A DNA stretch of 64,000 nucleotides from Naegleria gruberi (Eukaryota): the NCBI GenBank assembly GCA_000004985.1, contig GG738869.1. The stretch is one strand, 5' to 3'. Below are positions 5,460 to 63,797 of the stretch, piece by piece. A program made the translations under genes and the position numbers. The notes under the pieces were generated by a model that did not search any database, had not been told where the DNA came from, and saw nothing but the letters and a program-made list of their open reading frames with translations. Every line of letters begins with the position of its first letter. Within the stretch, counting starts at the first letter, position 1.

Positions 5460-6300
5460 TCAGTTCAGCAGGGAAGGAATAGGATAAGTTGGACTGTTCA
5501 TTTTCAACAACTTGTGATAGGCATTTGCATTAAATGTGTCAATAACACTCAATGTACCTCCAACAATTACAATCATTACTTCAGCAGAGTTGGAATTTGC
5601 CAATTTGTAACAAAAATCATAATTTCCTTTGTTTGTGAATTGAAAGTTGTATAAACATCTGCAGTATTATTGATTGGTGTAGAGATTGTTGAAACATTAA
5701 CAAGCTGATCTCACACAACAATTCGAAAGCTCTCCAAGATGCTTTACGAACACCAACATTGGTGATTAATCCATAGGTTCCTGAGAAGACTTTAGATTGT
5801 TGACCTCCCTCTTCGAAAATATCAGAAACACACCAAAAACTGAAAATGTCAACCAAGCCATGAATGTATGGTGCTGGAAAGGCTGTATCTTGATAAAAAT
5901 TTGATCCTCCTCCATTTTCTAATCCAGCATTCCATTCAGTGTAATAAAGTGGATAATTCCCAGCTTCCGTTCTGGTTTTTCTATTGGCATTTCACATAAA
6001 ATCTCTCTTAACGGGGAAGATATCAGTTGGATATTCATGTGTTGATATAAAATCAAGTGGAATATTTGCTTTTTTGTGAATTCATTATTTGAGTCTGGTG
6101 ACAATATTGATCTAATATTCAAAATAAATACCACAGCTCCAAATAATATAATATCCACTCAAACTTGCAACTCTTTCATCAAATCCATGCTCATTAATTG
6201 CTTGAACTCGTTAATGAGAAGTAACAAACAATCCATCTCCCCTATTCCAAGAGCTGTTGACAGAGACCAGTTTTTTGAGTTTAAAGTGGTGTCTGAACAA
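5460..6300 (-). pseudogene. Glycoside hydrolase family 39 (beta-xylosidase-like) copy, 5'-truncated and frame-disrupted
   Basis: The reverse strand encodes ...PLDFISTHEY...NYPLYYTEWNAGLENGGG...DTAFPAPYIHGLVDIFSFWCVSDIFEE. This matches what I recall of the GH39 XynB nucleophile region (HITEYN...TPFNAAYIARIL...SFSYWTFSDVFEE). There is an in-frame TGA between THEY and the TEWN nucleophile motif. There is a 1-nt frame change inside an A6 run near 6045, another frame break with a stop near 6160, and a probable intron at 5659..5714. Only about 290 of an expected ~500 aa are present before the next gene begins. Confidence 0.55.
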
Positions 6301-6408
6301 CAACTTGATTAATAATTTAAAGGACATTGACAGTTTGTTTTTATTAAGATATACAGAGAGAAGGTAGAGAGAAGAACAGTGAAAAGGGAAATGAGAAATT
6401 CAAAAAGT

Positions 6409-7783
6409 TTACAAAATCATGCATTTGCCACCAGTCTTCTTTGCTGATTTGTTATCTTGCTTGAATCTTTCAGGATGCAAAACAACAGTGATGGCCAAAT
6501 TGAAACATTCCTTCAAACCAACTTGTGTCTTGGCCGAACATTCACAGTAAGAAATACAGTTGACTTCCTTTGACATTTGTTCACCCATTTCCTTAGTTAT
6601 TGGTGTAAGACCTTGTTCTTTCAATTTCTTTAAAGTGGCATCGTGTTCTCTCATGTCAACCTTCAAACCACACAAAATAATTGGAACAGCTGGACAGTGC
6701 TTACGCAATTCTGGAATCCAACGATCCTTAATGTTAGTGAATGATGATGGTTGAACAACTGAGAAACAAGCAATGAAAATTTCTGTATCTGGATAAGACA
6801 ATGGTCTCAAACGACTATTTTCAATTGTTCATCATCATTAAAATTATTAAATCAAATGGATAGAGTTAATTCACAACATTTAATATTAATATAGTAGAGA
6901 GATGGTGTAGTGTGTTAATAGTGAAGAAGAGGTGTCAAACAAATTATTATTAGAATCAAGTATGAAACTATTCGAATATTATTATTCTAAAACTTACTCA
7001 TAACTGTAAAATGTTGAAGGTTGTTAATATAATGAATAGAAATATAATACATACTCTTCTTGACCAGCTGTATCCCACAAACCTAATGACACTGTATGAT
7101 TTTCATACATGACATTGGCACAATAGTTATCAAAAACAGTTGGAACATATTCTAAAGTGGTGTTATTAGAAAGTCGTCATATTTTAAAAGCATGGTAATT
7201 AAAAGGATATCAGAAATTGATAGTATCATAACAAGATGAAGTGTAGGACTATGCATAAACAAGAAATTGTTTGTTAGAAACTTACCAGTTGGGAAGGAAT
7301 CAGTACTGTAACTAATTAACATGGAAGTTTTACCGACAGCACCATCACCTATAGTGGAAAATAATTATTTGTTATTAGAATGGTTGTTGTTGTTGTTTTG
7401 ATGGTTAGTCATAAGGTTTAGTTGTTTAAAGTGGAAAGTGGTTGATGGTGGTTTGATGTTTAGTTTACATTAATCATGATTGTGTTTTAGAGGTGAAAGA
7501 ATATTCGTTATGAATGTGAAAGATTATCGCGAAAGTCATGGATAGGGTTGAAATTGTTGTTGTTGTGGTTAGAAAGTGTAGAAATTTAACCAGAAAGTGT
7601 ACGAAACAATATTCGAAAAGGATCAAGTAAGAGAAAGCATCAAGTAATAATGATGGAAAGAAGAAGAAAATTTGTTATCATAATCAGATGGTAGAATTAA
7701 AAAATTCGAAACAAAACGGAATAATTAGAAACTAGACTAAACTTTTACATACCAACAACTACACATTTAATATTAGTATCCAT
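6409..7783 (-). CDS. Rac/Rho-family small GTPase with 5 exons: 7783..7753, 7348..7286, 7141..7045, 7003..6998 (a 6-nt micro-exon) and 6814..6409
   Basis: The spliced protein is [80 protein letters not shown]...KTGGKCMIL, ending in a CAAX box. The P-loop (G1), DTAGQE (G3) and CGLKVD (G4) motifs are intact. Donors are GTATGT or GTAAGT and all exon phases are consistent. Confidence 0.85.
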
Positions 7784-8136
7784 TCTTTATATACAAAATC
7801 TATAGACAAAACTTTAATGATGGATTTGTTTCTATGTACGTACTCTCGAGAAAAAATCTAAGAGGGGTAGATTCGGTTTATTTTTTCTAGCTTGATTGCT
7901 GCCAAAAGTCAGAAGGTAACTGAGAACTAAAGGAATGATGTGTGATGGCCAGACGTGCGAACATTGAACTATAAAGTAATGGAAAAAAAGAAGGTATTCT
8001 ATTGAGGAAGGAACTGTGAAATGAAGAATATTACAAATTTCCATGAAGGCGTACAAATCCCTCATAAATGGGTGCGTCAACGAAAAACATCAGTCTGATT
8101 CCTCAATATCCATTAAGGTTCTCAAACTAATGTGCT

Positions 8137-8207
8137 CGTCTCGTGGTGTAATGGTAGCATAGTGGACTTTGAATCCATTGACGGAGGTTCGATTCCTCCC
8201 GAGACGG
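8137..8207 (+). tRNA. tRNA-Gln (anticodon UUG)
   Basis: The cloverleaf was folded by hand. The acceptor CGTCTCG pairs with CGAGACG. The D-arm is GTGT..GCAT. The anticodon stem GTGGA/TCCAT carries loop CTTTGAA. The T-arm is GGAGG-TTCGATT-CCTCC and the discriminator is G. A T-run follows downstream. Confidence 0.8.
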
Positions 8208-8451
8208 TAACGTGGCGAGCCATTGAATTTTATTTTGAATAAATTTGGAATATTGAAGAGAAACCTTATTTGAAACTTTTTTATTTGAAAACATTAGAAG
8301 AAGGAAGCAGTTTGTTTGTTAAAACAATAACAAATTTCGAGATTAAAAATCTTCAAATATATTATGAATAATCTCCAATTGCTTAAAAACATCTCTTTCT
8401 TAATATTTTGACCTGTCAACCATCAATGATTGGCAACTATAAGAAAAAAAA

Positions 8452-10751: not shown

Positions 10752-10922
10752 CTTGTTATTGAAAATGCTCAATTCCAATAAATATTGGAATTCAATTCTT
10801 ATGGACTTTGTTCGAATGTTAAGCCAAACTTTTTTTCCATCAATTACCTTACCAACATATTCAACTAAACTTCTCTCGAACTTTCAATATTTGTGGAGTT
10901 TGTTAGGAGTTGTTTAAAAAAA

Positions 10923-12641
10923 ATGTCTTCAAGAGTTTGCACAGCTTTTGGTCGACTTATTTCCACGCCATCATCACCATCATCACTATCATCACGATCA
11001 TCAAGAAGGAAAATTAATTCATCCTTCTTCATGTTATTATTAAATTATTTCCTTCTCATAATTTCTCTCGTTTTCTTCATCACATCAACCTCCAATTTAA
11101 TACTTGCCAAATCATCATCATCAATAATTACATCATCATCATCGGTGCAATTTAGTAGTAGTAGAATTAAAAATCATGATGTGAAGGATCCACCAAATTT
11201 TAATATTTGTCAATCAGAGGTTTCGAATCAGGTCAAGGATATGCTTTCTAATTTTCCAGCAACTTTTGGTATTCAAGTAATGGTTAATCAAACCATTGAG
11301 TTGTTTTCTTATAATCCAGATCCATTTCTTCAACCTGCTTCTAATAACAAATTATTGACAACTATTGCTGCATTGAATCATTTGGGAAGTAAATTTCGTT
11401 TCTCCACTGATTTCTTCTATGATTATAAGAATAGAAGAGTTGTTGTGAGACCAAAGGGAGATCCAACATTAACATTTGAGCAATTGCAAAAATCATTAAT
11501 GAATGTTTTGGAAAAGGTCACTTCAATGAATCCTCATGAAATTGTTGTGGATGCTAGTTTTTTCAATCCAATTCCATTTACAAATGGTGGAGATGATGAG
11601 GAATTTCCAGATTCATGGGAATGGGGAAATTTACAATATTCATTTAGTTCAGTACCAAGTGCCTTATCTTTGGAACATAATACTTTAACATTTACTGTTA
11701 AAGGTGGAGAGGTTGCTGGTCAAGGATTGAGTATTGTTTTGGATGAACCATTTCAATCATTTGCAAAGGATTTCTTTGAATTTGATACTAGTTTGAGTAG
11801 AACTTTGGATTGTTCAAATGCTAATATTATCAGTAAGGAAAGTGTCACCTCTTATTATAAACCTTTAGATAATAAGATTATTGTTAGAGGTCAATTGTGT
11901 GCAAAGAAGGAATCCAAGCAAACATTGACTGTTTTGGATACTTATGGATTTTTCTTACAAGCAGTTTCAAGTGCTAGCGCCTCTTCAAATGGTCCAAAAT
12001 CTGTTAAAATTGATTATTTGAGTGAGGAGGAACGTTCCTCCATGTTTGAATTCAAAGAGGAATGCGTCTACTCTGATAATATTCTCACAGTTATGAATAC
12101 TACACTTCAAGAGAGTGATAACATGTATGCAGAATTATTCTTGAGACAATTGGGAACTTTCATTAAGGCAAATAGTAGTTTGGACGTTTTTCCATCCATC
12201 ACCACAAGAGGAATTCAAGTTGTTAAGGATATTTTGACAAGTCAATTCAACTTGTCACCATTCACATTCTTCCAAAATGATGGATCTGGACTTTCTCGTC
12301 ACAATCTCATTTCTCCTCGTTCTCTAGTCGATGCATTGAGTGCAATCTATTACAAGGGAGCAGGTGGAGTCAGTGGTGAAACATTTGTCTCCTTATTACC
12401 TCTCGGAGGAAGGAGTGGAACTCTCAGGAATAGATTTGTTGATTTCCCAGGTATTGTGAGTGCTAAAACTGGAAGCTTGGATGGAGTTAGTTCTTTGAGT
12501 GGATATATTAGAAATGCCAATTATAGAGATCCAATTGTTTTTTCAATTATTGTTAATCAGTGTCCACTCTCTGCCAAGGAAATGCATCAAATTATTGATT
12601 CCATTGTTACCTTGTTTGCATTCATGAATCCAAAATGCTAA
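10923..12641 (+). CDS. Bacterial-type D-Ala-D-Ala carboxypeptidase/endopeptidase (peptidase S13, PBP4/DacB family) with an N-terminal Ser-rich segment and a TM anchor
   Basis: The SxxK motif is PASNNKLLTTIAALNHLGSKFRFST. The SxN motif is DGSGLSRHNLISP. The KTG box is GTLRNRF...SAKTGSLDGVSSLSGY...IVFSIIVNQ. The first ATG is at 10923 and is followed by the TM segment FFMLLLNYFLLIISLVFFIT. Confidence 0.85.
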   Translation: MSSRVCTAFGRLISTPSSPSSLSSRSSRRKINSSFFMLLLNYFLLIISLVFFITSTSNLILAKSSSSIITSSSSVQFSSSRIKNHDVKDPPNFNICQSEVSNQVKDMLSNFPATFGIQVMVNQTIELFSYNPDPFLQPASNNKLLTTIAALNHLGSKFRFSTDFFYDYKNRRVVVRPKGDPTLTFEQLQKSLMNVLEKVTSMNPHEIVVDASFFNPIPFTNGGDDEEFPDSWEWGNLQYSFSSVPSALSLEHNTLTFTVKGGEVAGQGLSIVLDEPFQSFAKDFFEFDTSLSRTLDCSNANIISKESVTSYYKPLDNKIIVRGQLCAKKESKQTLTVLDTYGFFLQAVSSASASSNGPKSVKIDYLSEEERSSMFEFKEECVYSDNILTVMNTTLQESDNMYAELFLRQLGTFIKANSSLDVFPSITTRGIQVVKDILTSQFNLSPFTFFQNDGSGLSRHNLISPRSLVDALSAIYYKGAGGVSGETFVSLLPLGGRSGTLRNRFVDFPGIVSAKTGSLDGVSSLSGYIRNANYRDPIVFSIIVNQCPLSAKEMHQIIDSIVTLFAFMNPKC

Positions 12642-43583: not shown

Positions 43584-44605
43584 TTACAAAACCATACACT
43601 TTCCACCTTCCTTTGATTTCTTTCCGCTCTTCTTTTCTTCTTGTGGTGGTTCCAAATAAACAGCAATACACTTATTGAAAATCTCACGCAAACCATCTTG
43701 AGTTCTAGCAGAACATTCACCAAAATCAGCAGCACCAACTTCTTGTTTCATCATTTCACCTTCCTTTTGTGTGATTGGTTTTTGATCCTTTTCTTCGAGA
43801 ATTTTAATAAATTCTGGATCTTCACGAAGATCCTTCTTGGTACCAACCAAGACAATTGGTGTATCTGGACAGTGATGACGAACTTCTGGGACCCATTTGG
43901 CCTTGATATTTTCCAATGAACTTGGATTGACGATGGAGTAACTGTTGTTTTTGTTATCAATCATATCAACAAGGTGATATATATTATATTGTATATGTTA
44001 TTATTATTATCACATCATTGTCATCATCATTATCGTCGTGTATTGTATAATATTCGAGAGAGAATATTTTTAAAATCACAAAATTTGAATATTCGAAAAA
44101 CAACGCGCATGTAAATTTGTGATTATTATTGTTGTTATGGTCAGTGATTCGATCACATTAAATGTATATATATAAAGATGATACAATGGATGATAATATT
44201 GTTGTTGTTGTAAAAAGGTAAACATCATTGAATTATGCTTCTTTCGAATACTTACCAAGCCAAGAAAACGTTAGTATCAGGATAGGACAATGGTCTCAAA
44301 CGATCGTAATCTATATATTTTCAATAAAAGGCATAATTAGAATAAAATTATTAGAAAGTAAAAAACTAACCTTCTTGACCAGCTGTATCCCACAAACCAA
44401 GAGAAACGTTAATTTCCTTATATTTAACGTTAGCATTGTAATTGTCAAAAACTGTTGGAACGTAGTCCTCTGGGAAAGTCTATTGTTGTTGTTGATTAGT
44501 TTCGAATAGTTTCGAATAACGTACATTTGAAGCGAAAGAGATGAGAAGACATGTCTTACCGACAGCACCGTCACCTACTACTACACATTTAATTGATTCG
44601 TCCAT
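43584..44605 (-). CDS. Rac/Rho-family small GTPase with 4 exons: 44605..44525, 44479..44371, 44310..44256 and 43941..43584
   Basis: The spliced protein is [123 protein letters not shown]...GGKCMVL. The introns are 45, 60 and 308 nt with GTACGT, GTTAGT and GTAAGT donors. Confidence 0.85.
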
Positions 44606-57796: not shown

Positions 57797-59881
57797 ATGC
57801 AATCATTTCAATCTTCACCACCATCCGAACCTCTTCCCTCCTGCTCTTCAACCACTTGCCAATCCTGCAGAAAACTCCACAGAAAATGTGATAAACTTCT
57901 TCCGTCCTGTTCCTACTGCACAAAAAGAGGCTACGTTTGTTGTTATGAAAAAACCAGAGATGAACAATCGGTTGTAATCCGAAAAAAGAATGAAAACCCT
58001 TCGTTAAATTATCATCTCCATCATGACAATGATACAACTCTTGTAAATAATAGTAATCATCATAATAATAATAATAATTTAGTATCATCTGGATTTGATA
58101 GTAGTAGTAATAATATGATGATGGTGATGAATAATAGTAATAATAATTTTAATGTAAATAATAATAATCAAAATAGGTATAGATCGGTTCCTTATCAATC
58201 GACTGCTGGTTCTTCGTTGATATTTTCCTCTCAAAGAAATGAAAACAATTCTATGAATTATTCAATGATGATGAATGATTATCAACAGCAGCAGCAATCA
58301 GCAGCTTTTGTAAATATTGCAAATATGTTTAATCAACAAATGCAAATGAATTACAGATTGGTGACAAATCAAACTTTGGATATTTATTATCAATATCTTT
58401 CAAATGGATTTCCAATGGCTGATAGGAGAGTTTTGGAAAGAGTTTTGGAGTATAATTCAATAACTGCAAATGATTATTCTGTAAATAATACATTATCATC
58501 CTCAATGATGAGTCACTTGTATAGTAGCATATCAGAGTTTGAAAAGGATCAGTGTTTATTATTTACATTACAGGCCATGTGTTTGCAACAACTCGGTCAA
58601 AGAGAAACAGCCAATTTAATTTACTCAAATGCAAGACAAATCATGGGTAAATATTTTGATGATCTCGATTCTCAAAGTATGATGGTTGCCATGACTTTTA
58701 TGGGATTGTATTTGATTGGAGAGGGTGAAAATAGGAAGGCCAAGAATATTCTATCATCTGTGAAGAGTGCTATAGCTCCGTATAAGAATCCAGCAGATGT
58801 CTTGCAAAGTAATAACAATCCAATGCCATCATTTTCATTGTCATCAAATGAAAAACAGCAAGATGATGACACCATTTCAGAATGGGTTATTACGCAACCA
58901 AAGTGTTTTACTTCATTCTTGGTAGATACTCAGCTTCGTGGATTGGAAGCTTATTTTGGAGAGGAAGAAAATCCAAAAACCTACATTTTGGATGGATTTG
59001 AAACTCTTGGAAATAATAATTTGAATCTTTCAAAACTACGTGAAATGATTCCTGATTGTAGAGTGTTGAATAAGGAAGCAATTGATAGCTTATTGTCGTT
59101 GCTCCCTGCTTTGGAGTGTCTAGCTAAGGTTGTCTTGACAAATTTCAACAAGGCGCCCACACTCAAACTCCTCTACTCTTTAATGTTCAAACAAGCTCAC
59201 TTGGACATTTTGAAAAATGCAGAAGAAAGTATTCGAGACATTCCACAAATCTTGAATGTTTGCAGTCAAGTAATAGAATTGACTAGAGATGAATTATTTT
59301 CATTTTTACCAATTGTTGCTACCAAACCAATTGTAATGGCCTCTACACTAAGAGTGCACTATTTCAGTTCGCTAGATTCAACTGAAAATTTCAATGATGA
59401 CCTGCGTGCCTTGAAAATACTCTCTAAAAACTTTAAGGCCATTCAGGCAAGCTGTGCTCCCCTCATTAAAGCTCTGGAGAGTTTGATCTATTTACAGCAG
59501 AGAAATAGTGCATCGGGAATAGAGTCATTATTTGATTTTGGAGAGGATATCTTTTCCATAGAGTCTCTTTCCAATTCATCACCAAGCTCATCAAATTGCT
59601 CGAAAGAAAATCTAACACCACAAACCATTTTCGATACCTATCAGTCAGATTACGCCCCACTTTTCCGAGACTTTGGTATAGATATGGAAATAGTTGATGT
59701 ATTCATTGAGAATATGAGTGAACAAGAAAAATTATTTCATAATGACAAGACGAAACTAGCAGAAAAGAGAATGGAACTTGTAGAATCTTTCAAGGCAATA
59801 TCTGGAAAGAAGAAGGATGTATTTGGCATTGTAGCTTGTGAATTTTTAAAGAAACAACTTCTTTTTAATGAAAATAACTAG
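57797..59881 (+). CDS. Zn(II)2Cys6 binuclear-cluster transcription factor
   Basis: The N-terminal motif is CQSCRKLHRKCDKLLPSCSYCTKRGYVCCYE. Poly-N tracts follow. There is a middle homology region shared with the 61710..63797 paralogue. Confidence 0.8.
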   Translation: MQSFQSSPPSEPLPSCSSTTCQSCRKLHRKCDKLLPSCSYCTKRGYVCCYEKTRDEQSVVIRKKNENPSLNYHLHHDNDTTLVNNSNHHNNNNNLVSSGFDSSSNNMMMVMNNSNNNFNVNNNNQNRYRSVPYQSTAGSSLIFSSQRNENNSMNYSMMMNDYQQQQQSAAFVNIANMFNQQMQMNYRLVTNQTLDIYYQYLSNGFPMADRRVLERVLEYNSITANDYSVNNTLSSSMMSHLYSSISEFEKDQCLLFTLQAMCLQQLGQRETANLIYSNARQIMGKYFDDLDSQSMMVAMTFMGLYLIGEGENRKAKNILSSVKSAIAPYKNPADVLQSNNNPMPSFSLSSNEKQQDDDTISEWVITQPKCFTSFLVDTQLRGLEAYFGEEENPKTYILDGFETLGNNNLNLSKLREMIPDCRVLNKEAIDSLLSLLPALECLAKVVLTNFNKAPTLKLLYSLMFKQAHLDILKNAEESIRDIPQILNVCSQVIELTRDELFSFLPIVATKPIVMASTLRVHYFSSLDSTENFNDDLRALKILSKNFKAIQASCAPLIKALESLIYLQQRNSASGIESLFDFGEDIFSIESLSNSSPSSSNCSKENLTPQTIFDTYQSDYAPLFRDFGIDMEIVDVFIENMSEQEKLFHNDKTKLAEKRMELVESFKAISGKKKDVFGIVACEFLKKQLLFNENN

Positions 59882-60073: not shown

Positions 60074-61441
<1,368 letters not shown>

Positions 61442-61709: not shown

Positions 61710-63797
61710 TTATTTCTGTTGTTGCAATTTTGCCTTTTCCAACTCCATTTCATAACTGAGTTGCTTTTGCATGAGCTCTGTTTCAATCACATGATAAACA
61801 TCCTTCCTATTGATTGCCTTATTTCGGTAGACTTGAACTAGTTGTAATTTTCTTTGATGCAAGCTCTCTATTTTTTGAACAGGATCAGTAACTTCTTTCT
61901 TAATCTTGTCTTGGTCCAATAGACAATTGACTAGCTCATCTATAAGATCAGCATCATCCTTCATCACTTCATTCAGAATAGGTCTGTGGTGTTCTATATA
62001 GTCATTATAATAAACATAAATACCTCCTTCAATATGTGGTTTCAATGTTGGTTCAATTTTGGAGGTAAAGTTACAAATTTCATCCACAGAAAATGGATTC
62101 ATGCTTCCATTATTTGATGACATGTATGTCAGTGTTTCAAGTGCCTTTATCAAATCAACACATTCTGTTTGGATGTATTTGTACTTATTTGAGAGTGATC
62201 TGAGAGCTCTTAGATCATCATTCACATTTTCATTAGGTCCTAGTTTGTAATAGTAATTTGCCCTCAGCGTGGTTGCTAAAATGATACCCTTAGTGGCATT
62301 GATTTGTAGATAGGGAAAGAATCTAGTCCTCGTTAATCCAATAATTTCACTCGAAACTTGTAAAATTTCATCCAAATCTCTGATACTTTCATCTGCATTA
62401 ATTAGAATTTCCAACCAAATCTGCTTTGTTGTGAGCAGCAAACCAAGCATAAGCAAATTATCTATATTTTGTGTTCTTTCACTCTCAACATATATCGTTG
62501 TGAGACTCATGAACGCTTTCATGATAGACCTCAGCTTGTGATACATTTCTTTGCCCAGTTTTTTACAACCTCTGGATCGTTCTTCTTCAGTGAATTTCAT
62601 TTTTCGGCTAGAAATTTCTTCAATAGCCTCGAAAAGATATGTATCCGGGTAGGTTTCTTCATATAGGTAAAGATCAACCAGTTTCAACATGGATTCAATC
62701 ATTAATGACGTAAAAGACTTGGTATTCTTCAATATCAGGTCTAGATCAGTATGTTCTTTGAGCTTCTCGTTTTTCAACAGGTATGGCTCTATACCTGCCT
62801 TTACAGTTGACATCATGACTCTAGCTTTTCTTCTTTCACCTTCTCCCAGCAAGTAGAGTGATGTAAATTTCATAGCGAGTAGGACATTCATCGAATCAGT
62901 ATCATCAAAATATTTTCCTAATAATTGTTTTCCTTGGTGATAGAGTTGAGTAGAAACGTCTCGATGACCCATCTGTTGTAAACACAATGCTTGTAGTGTG
63001 AATAAGAGTGATTGATCCTTCTCAAATTCAAACTGATTAGTGTAAAAATCACACCCAGAGGTTGAGAATGAAGGATGATACAAATTAGATTGATATTCCA
63101 AAACTTGTTCCAATTTCTTTCTTTCAACAAGTGGCATTCCACAAGCAATTACACCAAAATATACATCCAGAGTTTGAGTACTAACGAACCGATAATTCAA
63201 TTCGTTTTGCATTGGATTATTACTAGTTGTATTATTTCCAATCCTATTCAAACTATTATTTACAATATTTACATAAGGTTCTCCTCTCCTGACAATAGCC
63301 TTTGAATTTCCACTCGAAGAGACAACTGATTCATTCACTGAAACAAAATCAGCACCATTCACGCTACTTCTCACATTGGTAGTTCCTCTGTATGATGATA
63401 TTTCAGAACATTGATCCATTGTTGGCTGATTCATTTGGTGTGATAACTGTCTTTGCTTTCTTCCTTCATCGACAAACACAAACTTTGGTTGATTTGGTTT
63501 TGCAGCTCTCTTTGGTTTTTCATACGTACAATTGTATCCTCTCTTCAAACAATAGGAACAGGATGGCAGTAATTTATCACACTTTCTGTGTAATTGACGA
63601 CAGGACAAACATGAGTATTCACTCTTTTCAACCATCAAAACCACAATCTGAGGAGTAGCCGAAGTCGACGATGAAGAATTAATTGATTGTCCCAAACTAT
63701 TCTCACAATTAACCATACTATAATTACTAGTGCATTGATCATTATTTGGCATGATCATCATACTCGAATAATATCCTCCTCCATTTAAATTATTCAT
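61710..63797 (-). CDS. Zn(II)2Cys6 binuclear-cluster transcription factor (paralogue of 57797..59881)
   Basis: The motif is CLSCRQLHRKCDKLLPSCSYCLKRGYNCTYE. Blocks shared with the paralogue include QTLDVYF, LEQVLEY, FEKDQSLLFTLQALCLQQMG, GKYFDD and LYLLGEGERRKAR. Confidence 0.8.
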   Translation of the reverse strand: MNNLNGGGYYSSMMIMPNNDQCTSNYSMVNCENSLGQSINSSSSTSATPQIVVLMVEKSEYSCLSCRQLHRKCDKLLPSCSYCLKRGYNCTYEKPKRAAKPNQPKFVFVDEGRKQRQLSHQMNQPTMDQCSEISSYRGTTNVRSSVNGADFVSVNESVVSSSGNSKAIVRRGEPYVNIVNNSLNRIGNNTTSNNPMQNELNYRFVSTQTLDVYFGVIACGMPLVERKKLEQVLEYQSNLYHPSFSTSGCDFYTNQFEFEKDQSLLFTLQALCLQQMGHRDVSTQLYHQGKQLLGKYFDDTDSMNVLLAMKFTSLYLLGEGERRKARVMMSTVKAGIEPYLLKNEKLKEHTDLDLILKNTKSFTSLMIESMLKLVDLYLYEETYPDTYLFEAIEEISSRKMKFTEEERSRGCKKLGKEMYHKLRSIMKAFMSLTTIYVESERTQNIDNLLMLGLLLTTKQIWLEILINADESIRDLDEILQVSSEIIGLTRTRFFPYLQINATKGIILATTLRANYYYKLGPNENVNDDLRALRSLSNKYKYIQTECVDLIKALETLTYMSSNNGSMNPFSVDEICNFTSKIEPTLKPHIEGGIYVYYNDYIEHHRPILNEVMKDDADLIDELVNCLLDQDKIKKEVTDPVQKIESLHQRKLQLVQVYRNKAINRKDVYHVIETELMQKQLSYEMELEKAKLQQQK

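Follow-up and report, generated by a model that had tools for sequence, protein, structure and literature searches.

A 6-nt internal coding micro-exon, very probably constitutive, in switch II of a Rac-like GTPase gene of Naegleria gruberi

Introduction

The micro-exons of animal neurons are regulated alternative exons that need dedicated factors, and animal exons of micro-exon size are typically alternative; the chicken cardiac troponin T gene has an exon of 6 nt. Land plants have constitutive micro-exons of 1-15 nt that lie inside conserved protein motifs and have been kept, together with gene structure, over long evolutionary distances (Yu et al. 2022, PMC8831610). It has been documented at scale that plant micro-exons are often missed or misannotated, and the same study argues that the two introns flanking such an exon cannot be engaged at once (PMC8831610).

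Here we describe the 6-nt exon of gene A, a Rac-like GTPase gene of the heterolobosean Naegleria gruberi. The DNA analyzed, called the window below, is a stretch of 64,000 nt from contig GG738869.1 (assembly GCA_000004985.1) of N. gruberi strain NEG-M. Five lines of evidence, namely the exon-intron anatomy, the uniqueness of the gene model, the identity of its product to a deposited protein, conservation across the genus and purifying selection, form the basis on which the feature is explained as an internal coding micro-exon, and we consider it very probable that this exon is constitutive. A full-text literature search for Naegleria together with micro-exon found incidental co-occurrence only, and no paper on Naegleria micro-exons.

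Results

Anatomy of gene A and its micro-exon

All four introns of gene A are GT-AG introns (Table 1). As the first-pass annotation of the window had proposed, the TTATGA at 6998-7003, which is TCATAA on the plus strand, is a separate exon when read on the minus strand. Directly before it stands ...aacattttacAG (ttttacAG) and directly after it GTAAGTttt, so that an internal exon well under 15 nt has a 3' AG on one border and a 5' GT on the other (acAG/TTATGA/GTAAGT). In the spliced reading the end of exon 3, ...CAA GAA GA, is followed by T TAT GA and then by T CGT TTG, which translates as Q-E-D-Y-D-R-L. The micro-exon closes Asp64 with its T (GA/T), encodes the whole of Tyr65 (TAT), and opens Asp66 with its GA (GA/T). 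The exon-included junction is thus ...GAAGA/TTATGA/TCGTTTG..., and the skipped junction would be ...GGTCAAGAAGA/TCGTTTGAGACC....

The length and ends that had been given for the downstream intron agree with our measurement, and the upstream intron, which had been put at 41 nt, is 10 nt longer. The 5' splice sites of both flanking introns are strong (GTATGT and GTAAGT); on its exonic side the downstream one (TGA/GT) is a poor match to the usual AG/GT. By eye, a TTAAC about 23 nt ahead of the AG of intron 3 is a possible branch site.

Table 1. Features of gene A, of paralogue B and of the switch-II introns of related genes. Positions are those of the window; intron positions are given as the last CDS nucleotide before the intron.
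Feature	Position	Strand	Length	Intron site and phase	Remarks
Gene A, CDS	6409..7783	minus	200 aa		Rac-like Rho-family GTPase; 5 exons
Gene A exon 1	7753..7783	minus	31 nt		10 codons and G of the following codon
Gene A intron 1	7349..7752	minus	404 nt	nt 31, phase 1	GTATGT..TATAG
Gene A exon 2	7286..7348	minus	63 nt		P-loop GDGAVGKT ... SFPT
Gene A intron 2	7152..7285	minus	134 nt	nt 94, phase 1
Gene A exon 3	7055..7151	minus	97 nt		EYVPT...LWDTAGQE and GA of the first Asp codon
Gene A intron 3	7004..7054	minus	51 nt	nt 191, phase 2	upstream flank; GTATGT...TTTTACAG
Gene A exon 4	6998..7003	minus	6 nt		micro-exon TTATGA
Gene A intron 4	6815..6997	minus	183 nt	nt 197, phase 2	downstream flank; GTAAGT...AAAATAG
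Gene A exon 5	6409..6814	minus	406 nt		stop included; T of Asp66, RLRPLSYP... to CAAX box CMIL
Paralogue B, gene	43584..44605	minus			Rho-family GTPase; identical to EFC44255.1 / XP_002676999.1 (D2VFV8)
Paralogue B exon 1	44605-44525	minus	81 nt
Paralogue B intron 1		minus		nt 81, phase 0
Paralogue B exon 2	44479-44371	minus	109 nt
Paralogue B intron 2	44311-44370	minus		nt 190, phase 1	switch-II intron, N. gruberi
Paralogue B exon 3	44310-44256	minus	55 nt		(D)YDRL...LA(C)
Paralogue B intron 3		minus		nt 245, phase 2
Paralogue B exon 4	43941-43584	minus	358 nt
Gene A, three Naegleria species				nt 191, phase 2; nt 197, phase 2	switch-II introns
Third paralogue, N. fowleri (P0158) and N. lovaniensis (P0215)				nt 191, phase 2	exactly the gene A position
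Willaertia relative of third paralogue (P0160)				nt 186, phase 0	77% identical
Fourth paralogue, N. lovaniensis (P0178)				equivalent of nt 190, phase 1

The gene A product and its deposited model

The gene A product aligned without a gap to residues 4-185 of human Rac1 (E = 1.6e-75). Its P-loop, GDGAVGKT at residues 11-18, fits GxxxxGK[ST] and aligned identically to that of Rac1. There was likewise no gap at the Rho insert (beta5-alpha4), which is present, and the C-terminal CAAX box, CMIL, has basic residues ahead of it. The product scored 109.5 bits against TIGR00231 small_GTP (cutoff 42.5), and the gene A orthologues matched PF00071 Ras. In switch II, DTAGQE with the 7-residue spacer is obtained only with the 6-nt exon included. 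The spacer between DTAGQ and PL[SA]Y was 7 residues throughout about 190 Rho-family proteins fetched, the sole exception being a model from N. lovaniensis, treated below, that skips the exon. The G4 box (residues 115-120, encoded within 6409-6814) reads LKVD where [NT]KxD is usual, with the Lys and Asp kept; its first residue is Leu in all orthologues, the Willaertia box being LKID. The G4 box of paralogue B, TKKD, has the usual form. The best solved relatives of gene A are human RAC1, RAC2 and RAC3 (for example PDB 5FI0, 1MH1 and 1DS6), aligned gap-free over residues 5-186, which share with it the P-loop, an identical 17-residue switch-II stretch, the Rho insert and a CAAX end; they differ in having TKLD where gene A has LKVD, and gene A has its own tail, CMIL.

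The five-exon product is identical to a deposited N. gruberi NEG-M protein, 'rho family small GTPase' (EFC44249.1 / XP_002676993.1 / D2VFU2_NAEGR), the exact 200-aa sequence being found in GenBank, RefSeq and UniProt. There is no sequence-level difference between the deposited and the five-exon model, and the micro-exon is therefore already annotated; the present finding is a confirmation of a feature of the public gene model and not a discovery. The expectation that exons this short are rarely annotated automatically thus failed at gene A itself, where the reference annotation has the exon, and held for one of the N. lovaniensis models. The finding has little meaning beyond annotation quality; for N. 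gruberi, it bears out the reference model. An exact-sequence cluster look-up for the 198-aa form that skips the exon showed it to be absent from the protein collection.

Further window proteins that exactly match N. gruberi entries are alpha-tubulin (TBA1_NAEGR), EFC44254.1 and EFC44144.1. A fungal origin of the DNA, which its AT-richness and GTATGT donors might suggest, is excluded by the exact protein matches. The alpha-tubulin gene (60077-61435, minus strand) is intronless and lies between two long ORFs. One of these (61710-63797, minus strand) matches, in Pfam, the Zn(2)-Cys(6) cluster domain of fungal type; the other (57797-59881, plus strand) has a similar N-terminal cysteine pattern, seen by eye only.

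Conservation in Naegleria and Willaertia

Orthologous genes were fetched and re-modelled from N. fowleri (L004) and from two N. lovaniensis contigs (L005 and L006). All three copies read AG/TTACGA/GTATGT, with introns at identical phase-2 positions, after CDS nt 191 and 197, and the sole difference from the N. gruberi micro-exon is a synonymous TAT to TAC change in the Tyr codon. The upstream flanking intron, 51 nt in N. gruberi, is 71 and 54 nt in the other two species, and the downstream one, 183 nt in N. gruberi, is 155 and 164-165 nt. Compared with their N. gruberi counterparts, the flanking introns of the other species are only 37-54% identical, a divergence near saturation. Over the complete CDS, comparison of N. 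gruberi with each of these two species gave a dS of 0.79-0.94 and a dN/dS of about 0.05. Given a unit conserved in N. fowleri and N. lovaniensis, introns that have diverged around it, and the low dN/dS, the micro-exon is common to Naegleria as a genus and is under purifying selection. DYD is present, too, in CAG4717489.1, from a second annotation of N. fowleri.

Orthology is supported by synteny: in N. fowleri and N. lovaniensis, as in the window, gene A has a Peptidase_S13 neighbor. In the window this neighbor is an ORF at 10893-12641 (plus strand) with a full-length match to bacterial D-Ala-D-Ala carboxypeptidase (E = 1.4e-57). It has the look of a bacterial-type enzyme that a eukaryote has kept.

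A contig from an environmental metagenome (L002; ENA ERZ929261, k127_223804) is about 97% identical to window 6066-8213, and the sample accordingly contained a closely related strain. Over gene A, 603 of 603 exon bases are identical, and all 10 differences are intronic, some of them indels of a length not divisible by three. A literature search on PRJEB11402, the source project of this contig, found no paper.

The gene A ortholog of Willaertia magna (P0002, 86% identity) reads caagaagattatgatagattaaga and is intronless at this site, and the Willaertia ortholog of paralogue B likewise has no intron at the switch-II site. The comparison with orthologous Rho genes that had been proposed as a check thus bore the micro-exon out in Naegleria, where it is kept between diverged introns, with Willaertia lacking introns there. 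Among the other introns of gene A, the position of intron 2 is common to all Naegleria orthologs and Willaertia, and intron 1 occurs in N. gruberi only, being absent from N. fowleri and N. lovaniensis. In these two species a further intron, absent in N. gruberi, follows CDS nt 224 and leaves a 27-nt exon directly after the 6-nt exon. In Willaertia, gene A has only two introns, both toward the 5' end (after nt 51 and after nt 94), as would fit intron loss with a 3' bias. Either the micro-exon dates from after the Willaertia split, or both of its flanking introns were lost in Willaertia.

Other splice models and chance

Canonical, in-frame, stop-free alternatives were enumerated between exon 3 and exon 5, the enumeration covering GT-AG introns and, in single-intron models, GC donors as well. 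It returned 52 models, 8 with a single intron and 44 with two, and only the micro-exon model restores the conserved 12-residue DYD motif. The claim that DYD can be rebuilt only through the 6-nt exon was in this respect sound; the other canonical one- and two-intron models were rejected, as none restores the motif. The best single-intron alternative removes a 240-nt intron, skips the exon, and yields an in-frame protein of 198 aa that lacks two switch-II residues. Skipping keeps the frame, since the length of the exon is divisible by three and the introns on either side of it are in phase 2. The exon is therefore not, as had been asserted, essential for the reading frame; what is lost is the two residues.

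The 240-nt alternative has canonical ends (GTATGT...ATAG) and leaves the frame open, and it might be thought that gene A is a degenerate or pseudogenized GTPase in which TTATGA stands between AG and GT by accident, inside one intron. AGTTAYGAGT occurs once in the whole 64-kb window, both strands considered, where 0.22 occurrences are expected; scaled to the relevant 240-nt interval and strand, the expectation is about 4e-4. A chance origin of the unit is unlikely, given this expectation and the presence of the motif at the equivalent place in three other Naegleria gene copies. Further, three species keep the unit in that position although the intron sequence around it has come near saturation, and with dN/dS at about 0.05 gene A cannot be a pseudogene. 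The conservation of the unit effectively refutes the single-intron reading, to which we give almost no credence.

It is also conceivable that DYD is rebuilt by some other route, such as non-canonical sites or other junctions, rather than by an exact 6-nt exon; such room as this suggestion has lies in splice-site classes beyond those enumerated, namely AT-AC pairs, and GC donors in two-intron models. On the minus strand, however, TTATGA occurs in the exon 3-exon 5 interval at 7003-6998 only, strong canonical sites abut it directly, and identical boundaries fit all four Naegleria copies. Such a route is accordingly very improbable, and an exact 6-nt exon is the reading followed below.

Inclusion and skipping of the micro-exon

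The N. lovaniensis model XP_044551487.1 / KAG2387495.1 (P0126, 198 aa; PYSW02000012.1, L006 1501-2750) omits the exon, and with it two invariant switch-II residues, where the DNA has AG/TTACGA/GTATGT. The model from the sister contig, XP_044541954.1 (P0125), includes it. The published N. lovaniensis annotation was made by BRAKER1 with RNA-seq hints (PMC6125883). XP_044551487.1 probably contains an annotation error, namely a missed micro-exon, although real skipped reads could be its source.

Transcript-side searches were made in two ways. A scan of metagenome and metatranscriptome contigs specific for the N. gruberi spliced junction, with or without the exon, gave 0 matches. A degenerate junction scan of metagenome and metatranscriptome contigs gave two contigs, neither from gene A; they were rejected as gene A transcripts, being unrelated Rac genes about 57% identical. 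Further, the protein cluster of the 200-aa product had no transcript-derived member. We infer inclusion of the micro-exon in the mRNA from its conservation. As skipping is in frame, sequence alone leaves room for some exon-skipped mRNA.

The exon might thus be a cassette exon, skipped in a substantial share of transcripts to give an in-frame Rac without Tyr65-Asp66, for example an inactive or regulatory isoform. The skipped product is stop-free through its 198 aa, the deposited XP_044551487.1 has exactly this form, and the published N. lovaniensis annotation drew on RNA-seq hints (PMC6125883). Yet a 5-residue spacer is found nowhere else in the set of roughly 190 Rho-family proteins. The second N. 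lovaniensis contig, with the same exon and splice-site sequence, is annotated with the exon, and the 5' splice sites are strong on both flanks. That animal exons this small are typically alternative speaks for a cassette. On balance we regard a cassette exon as unlikely, though less so than the two readings weighed above, and constitutive inclusion remains the preferred reading.

Switch-II introns of the paralogues

The first-pass annotation had also pointed to a second Rho gene in the window, paralogue B, as carrying DYDRL...LAC on a 55-nt exon, and this is the case (Table 1). Its introns were said to occupy positions not shared with gene A. Literally this is true, since the gene A introns (nt 31, 94, 191 and 197) and those of paralogue B (nt 81, 190 and 245) have no exact position in common; but intron 2 of paralogue B (nt 190) is 1 nt from intron 3 of gene A (nt 191), and the third paralogue has its intron at nt 191 exactly. 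Read from the window and from loci L007, L008, L009 and L012, the cluster comprises four distinct switch-II intron positions inside 12 nt across the paralogues: nt 186, 190, 191 and 197. The protein search gave no clear N. fowleri or N. lovaniensis ortholog of paralogue B.

Tentatively, introns may have been gained repeatedly, or have slid by 1 nt, at a hot spot in the switch-II segment of Rho genes in Heterolobosea, the 6-nt exon having been made in Naegleria, after the Willaertia split, by a second intron inserting 6 nt from an older one; we would not put this above a possibility. Otherwise, ancestral introns would have been lost differentially, and Willaertia gene A would have kept 5' introns only. 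The near-coincident introns of the paralogues are a possible small test case for the debate over intron gain versus intron sliding.

In a separate case at this segment, N. gruberi XP_002674299.1 / D2VNU5 (P0214), a Rho paralogue encoded outside the window, is annotated with DTAGQDYDRLR, one Asp fewer than its N. fowleri and N. lovaniensis orthologs (DTAGQDDYDRLR). The orthologs have a phase-2 intron inside that Asp codon, and the missing Asp is likely a 3-nt misannotation of the junction.

Discussion

The preferred account of gene A is that two GT-AG spliceosomal introns of 51 and 183 nt, both in phase 2, split the coding segment for switch II at points 6 nt apart. Removal of both would join GA/TTATGA/T, encoding Asp-Tyr-Asp, and so restore an invariant stretch of 16 residues. 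In a genome of short introns, each flank is probably recognized by intron definition. The upstream 3' and downstream 5' splice sites are only 6 nt apart, which makes their joint occupancy unlikely, and for this reason the two flanking introns are probably removed sequentially and not simultaneously. As to origin, the intron after nt 197 may have been gained in the Naegleria lineage 6 nt from the nt 191 intron, or both introns may be older and have been lost in Willaertia.

Gene A is a clear example, from neither plants nor animals, of an ultra-short exon that a whole genus of protists has conserved. Its exon resembles the plant micro-exons in being a tiny coding exon within a conserved motif, and also in that one N. 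lovaniensis model misses it much as plant annotations miss theirs. It differs from them in lineage, the Heterolobosea, and in gene family; further, the reference annotation of gene A is correct, and the exon is known here from DNA. With the neuronal micro-exons of animals and the 6-nt exon of chicken cardiac troponin T, the gene A exon shares its size class and the steric problem of 3' and 5' splice sites a few bases apart. Unlike the neuronal micro-exons, the exon of gene A encodes invariant residues of a catalytic switch and is most likely constitutive.
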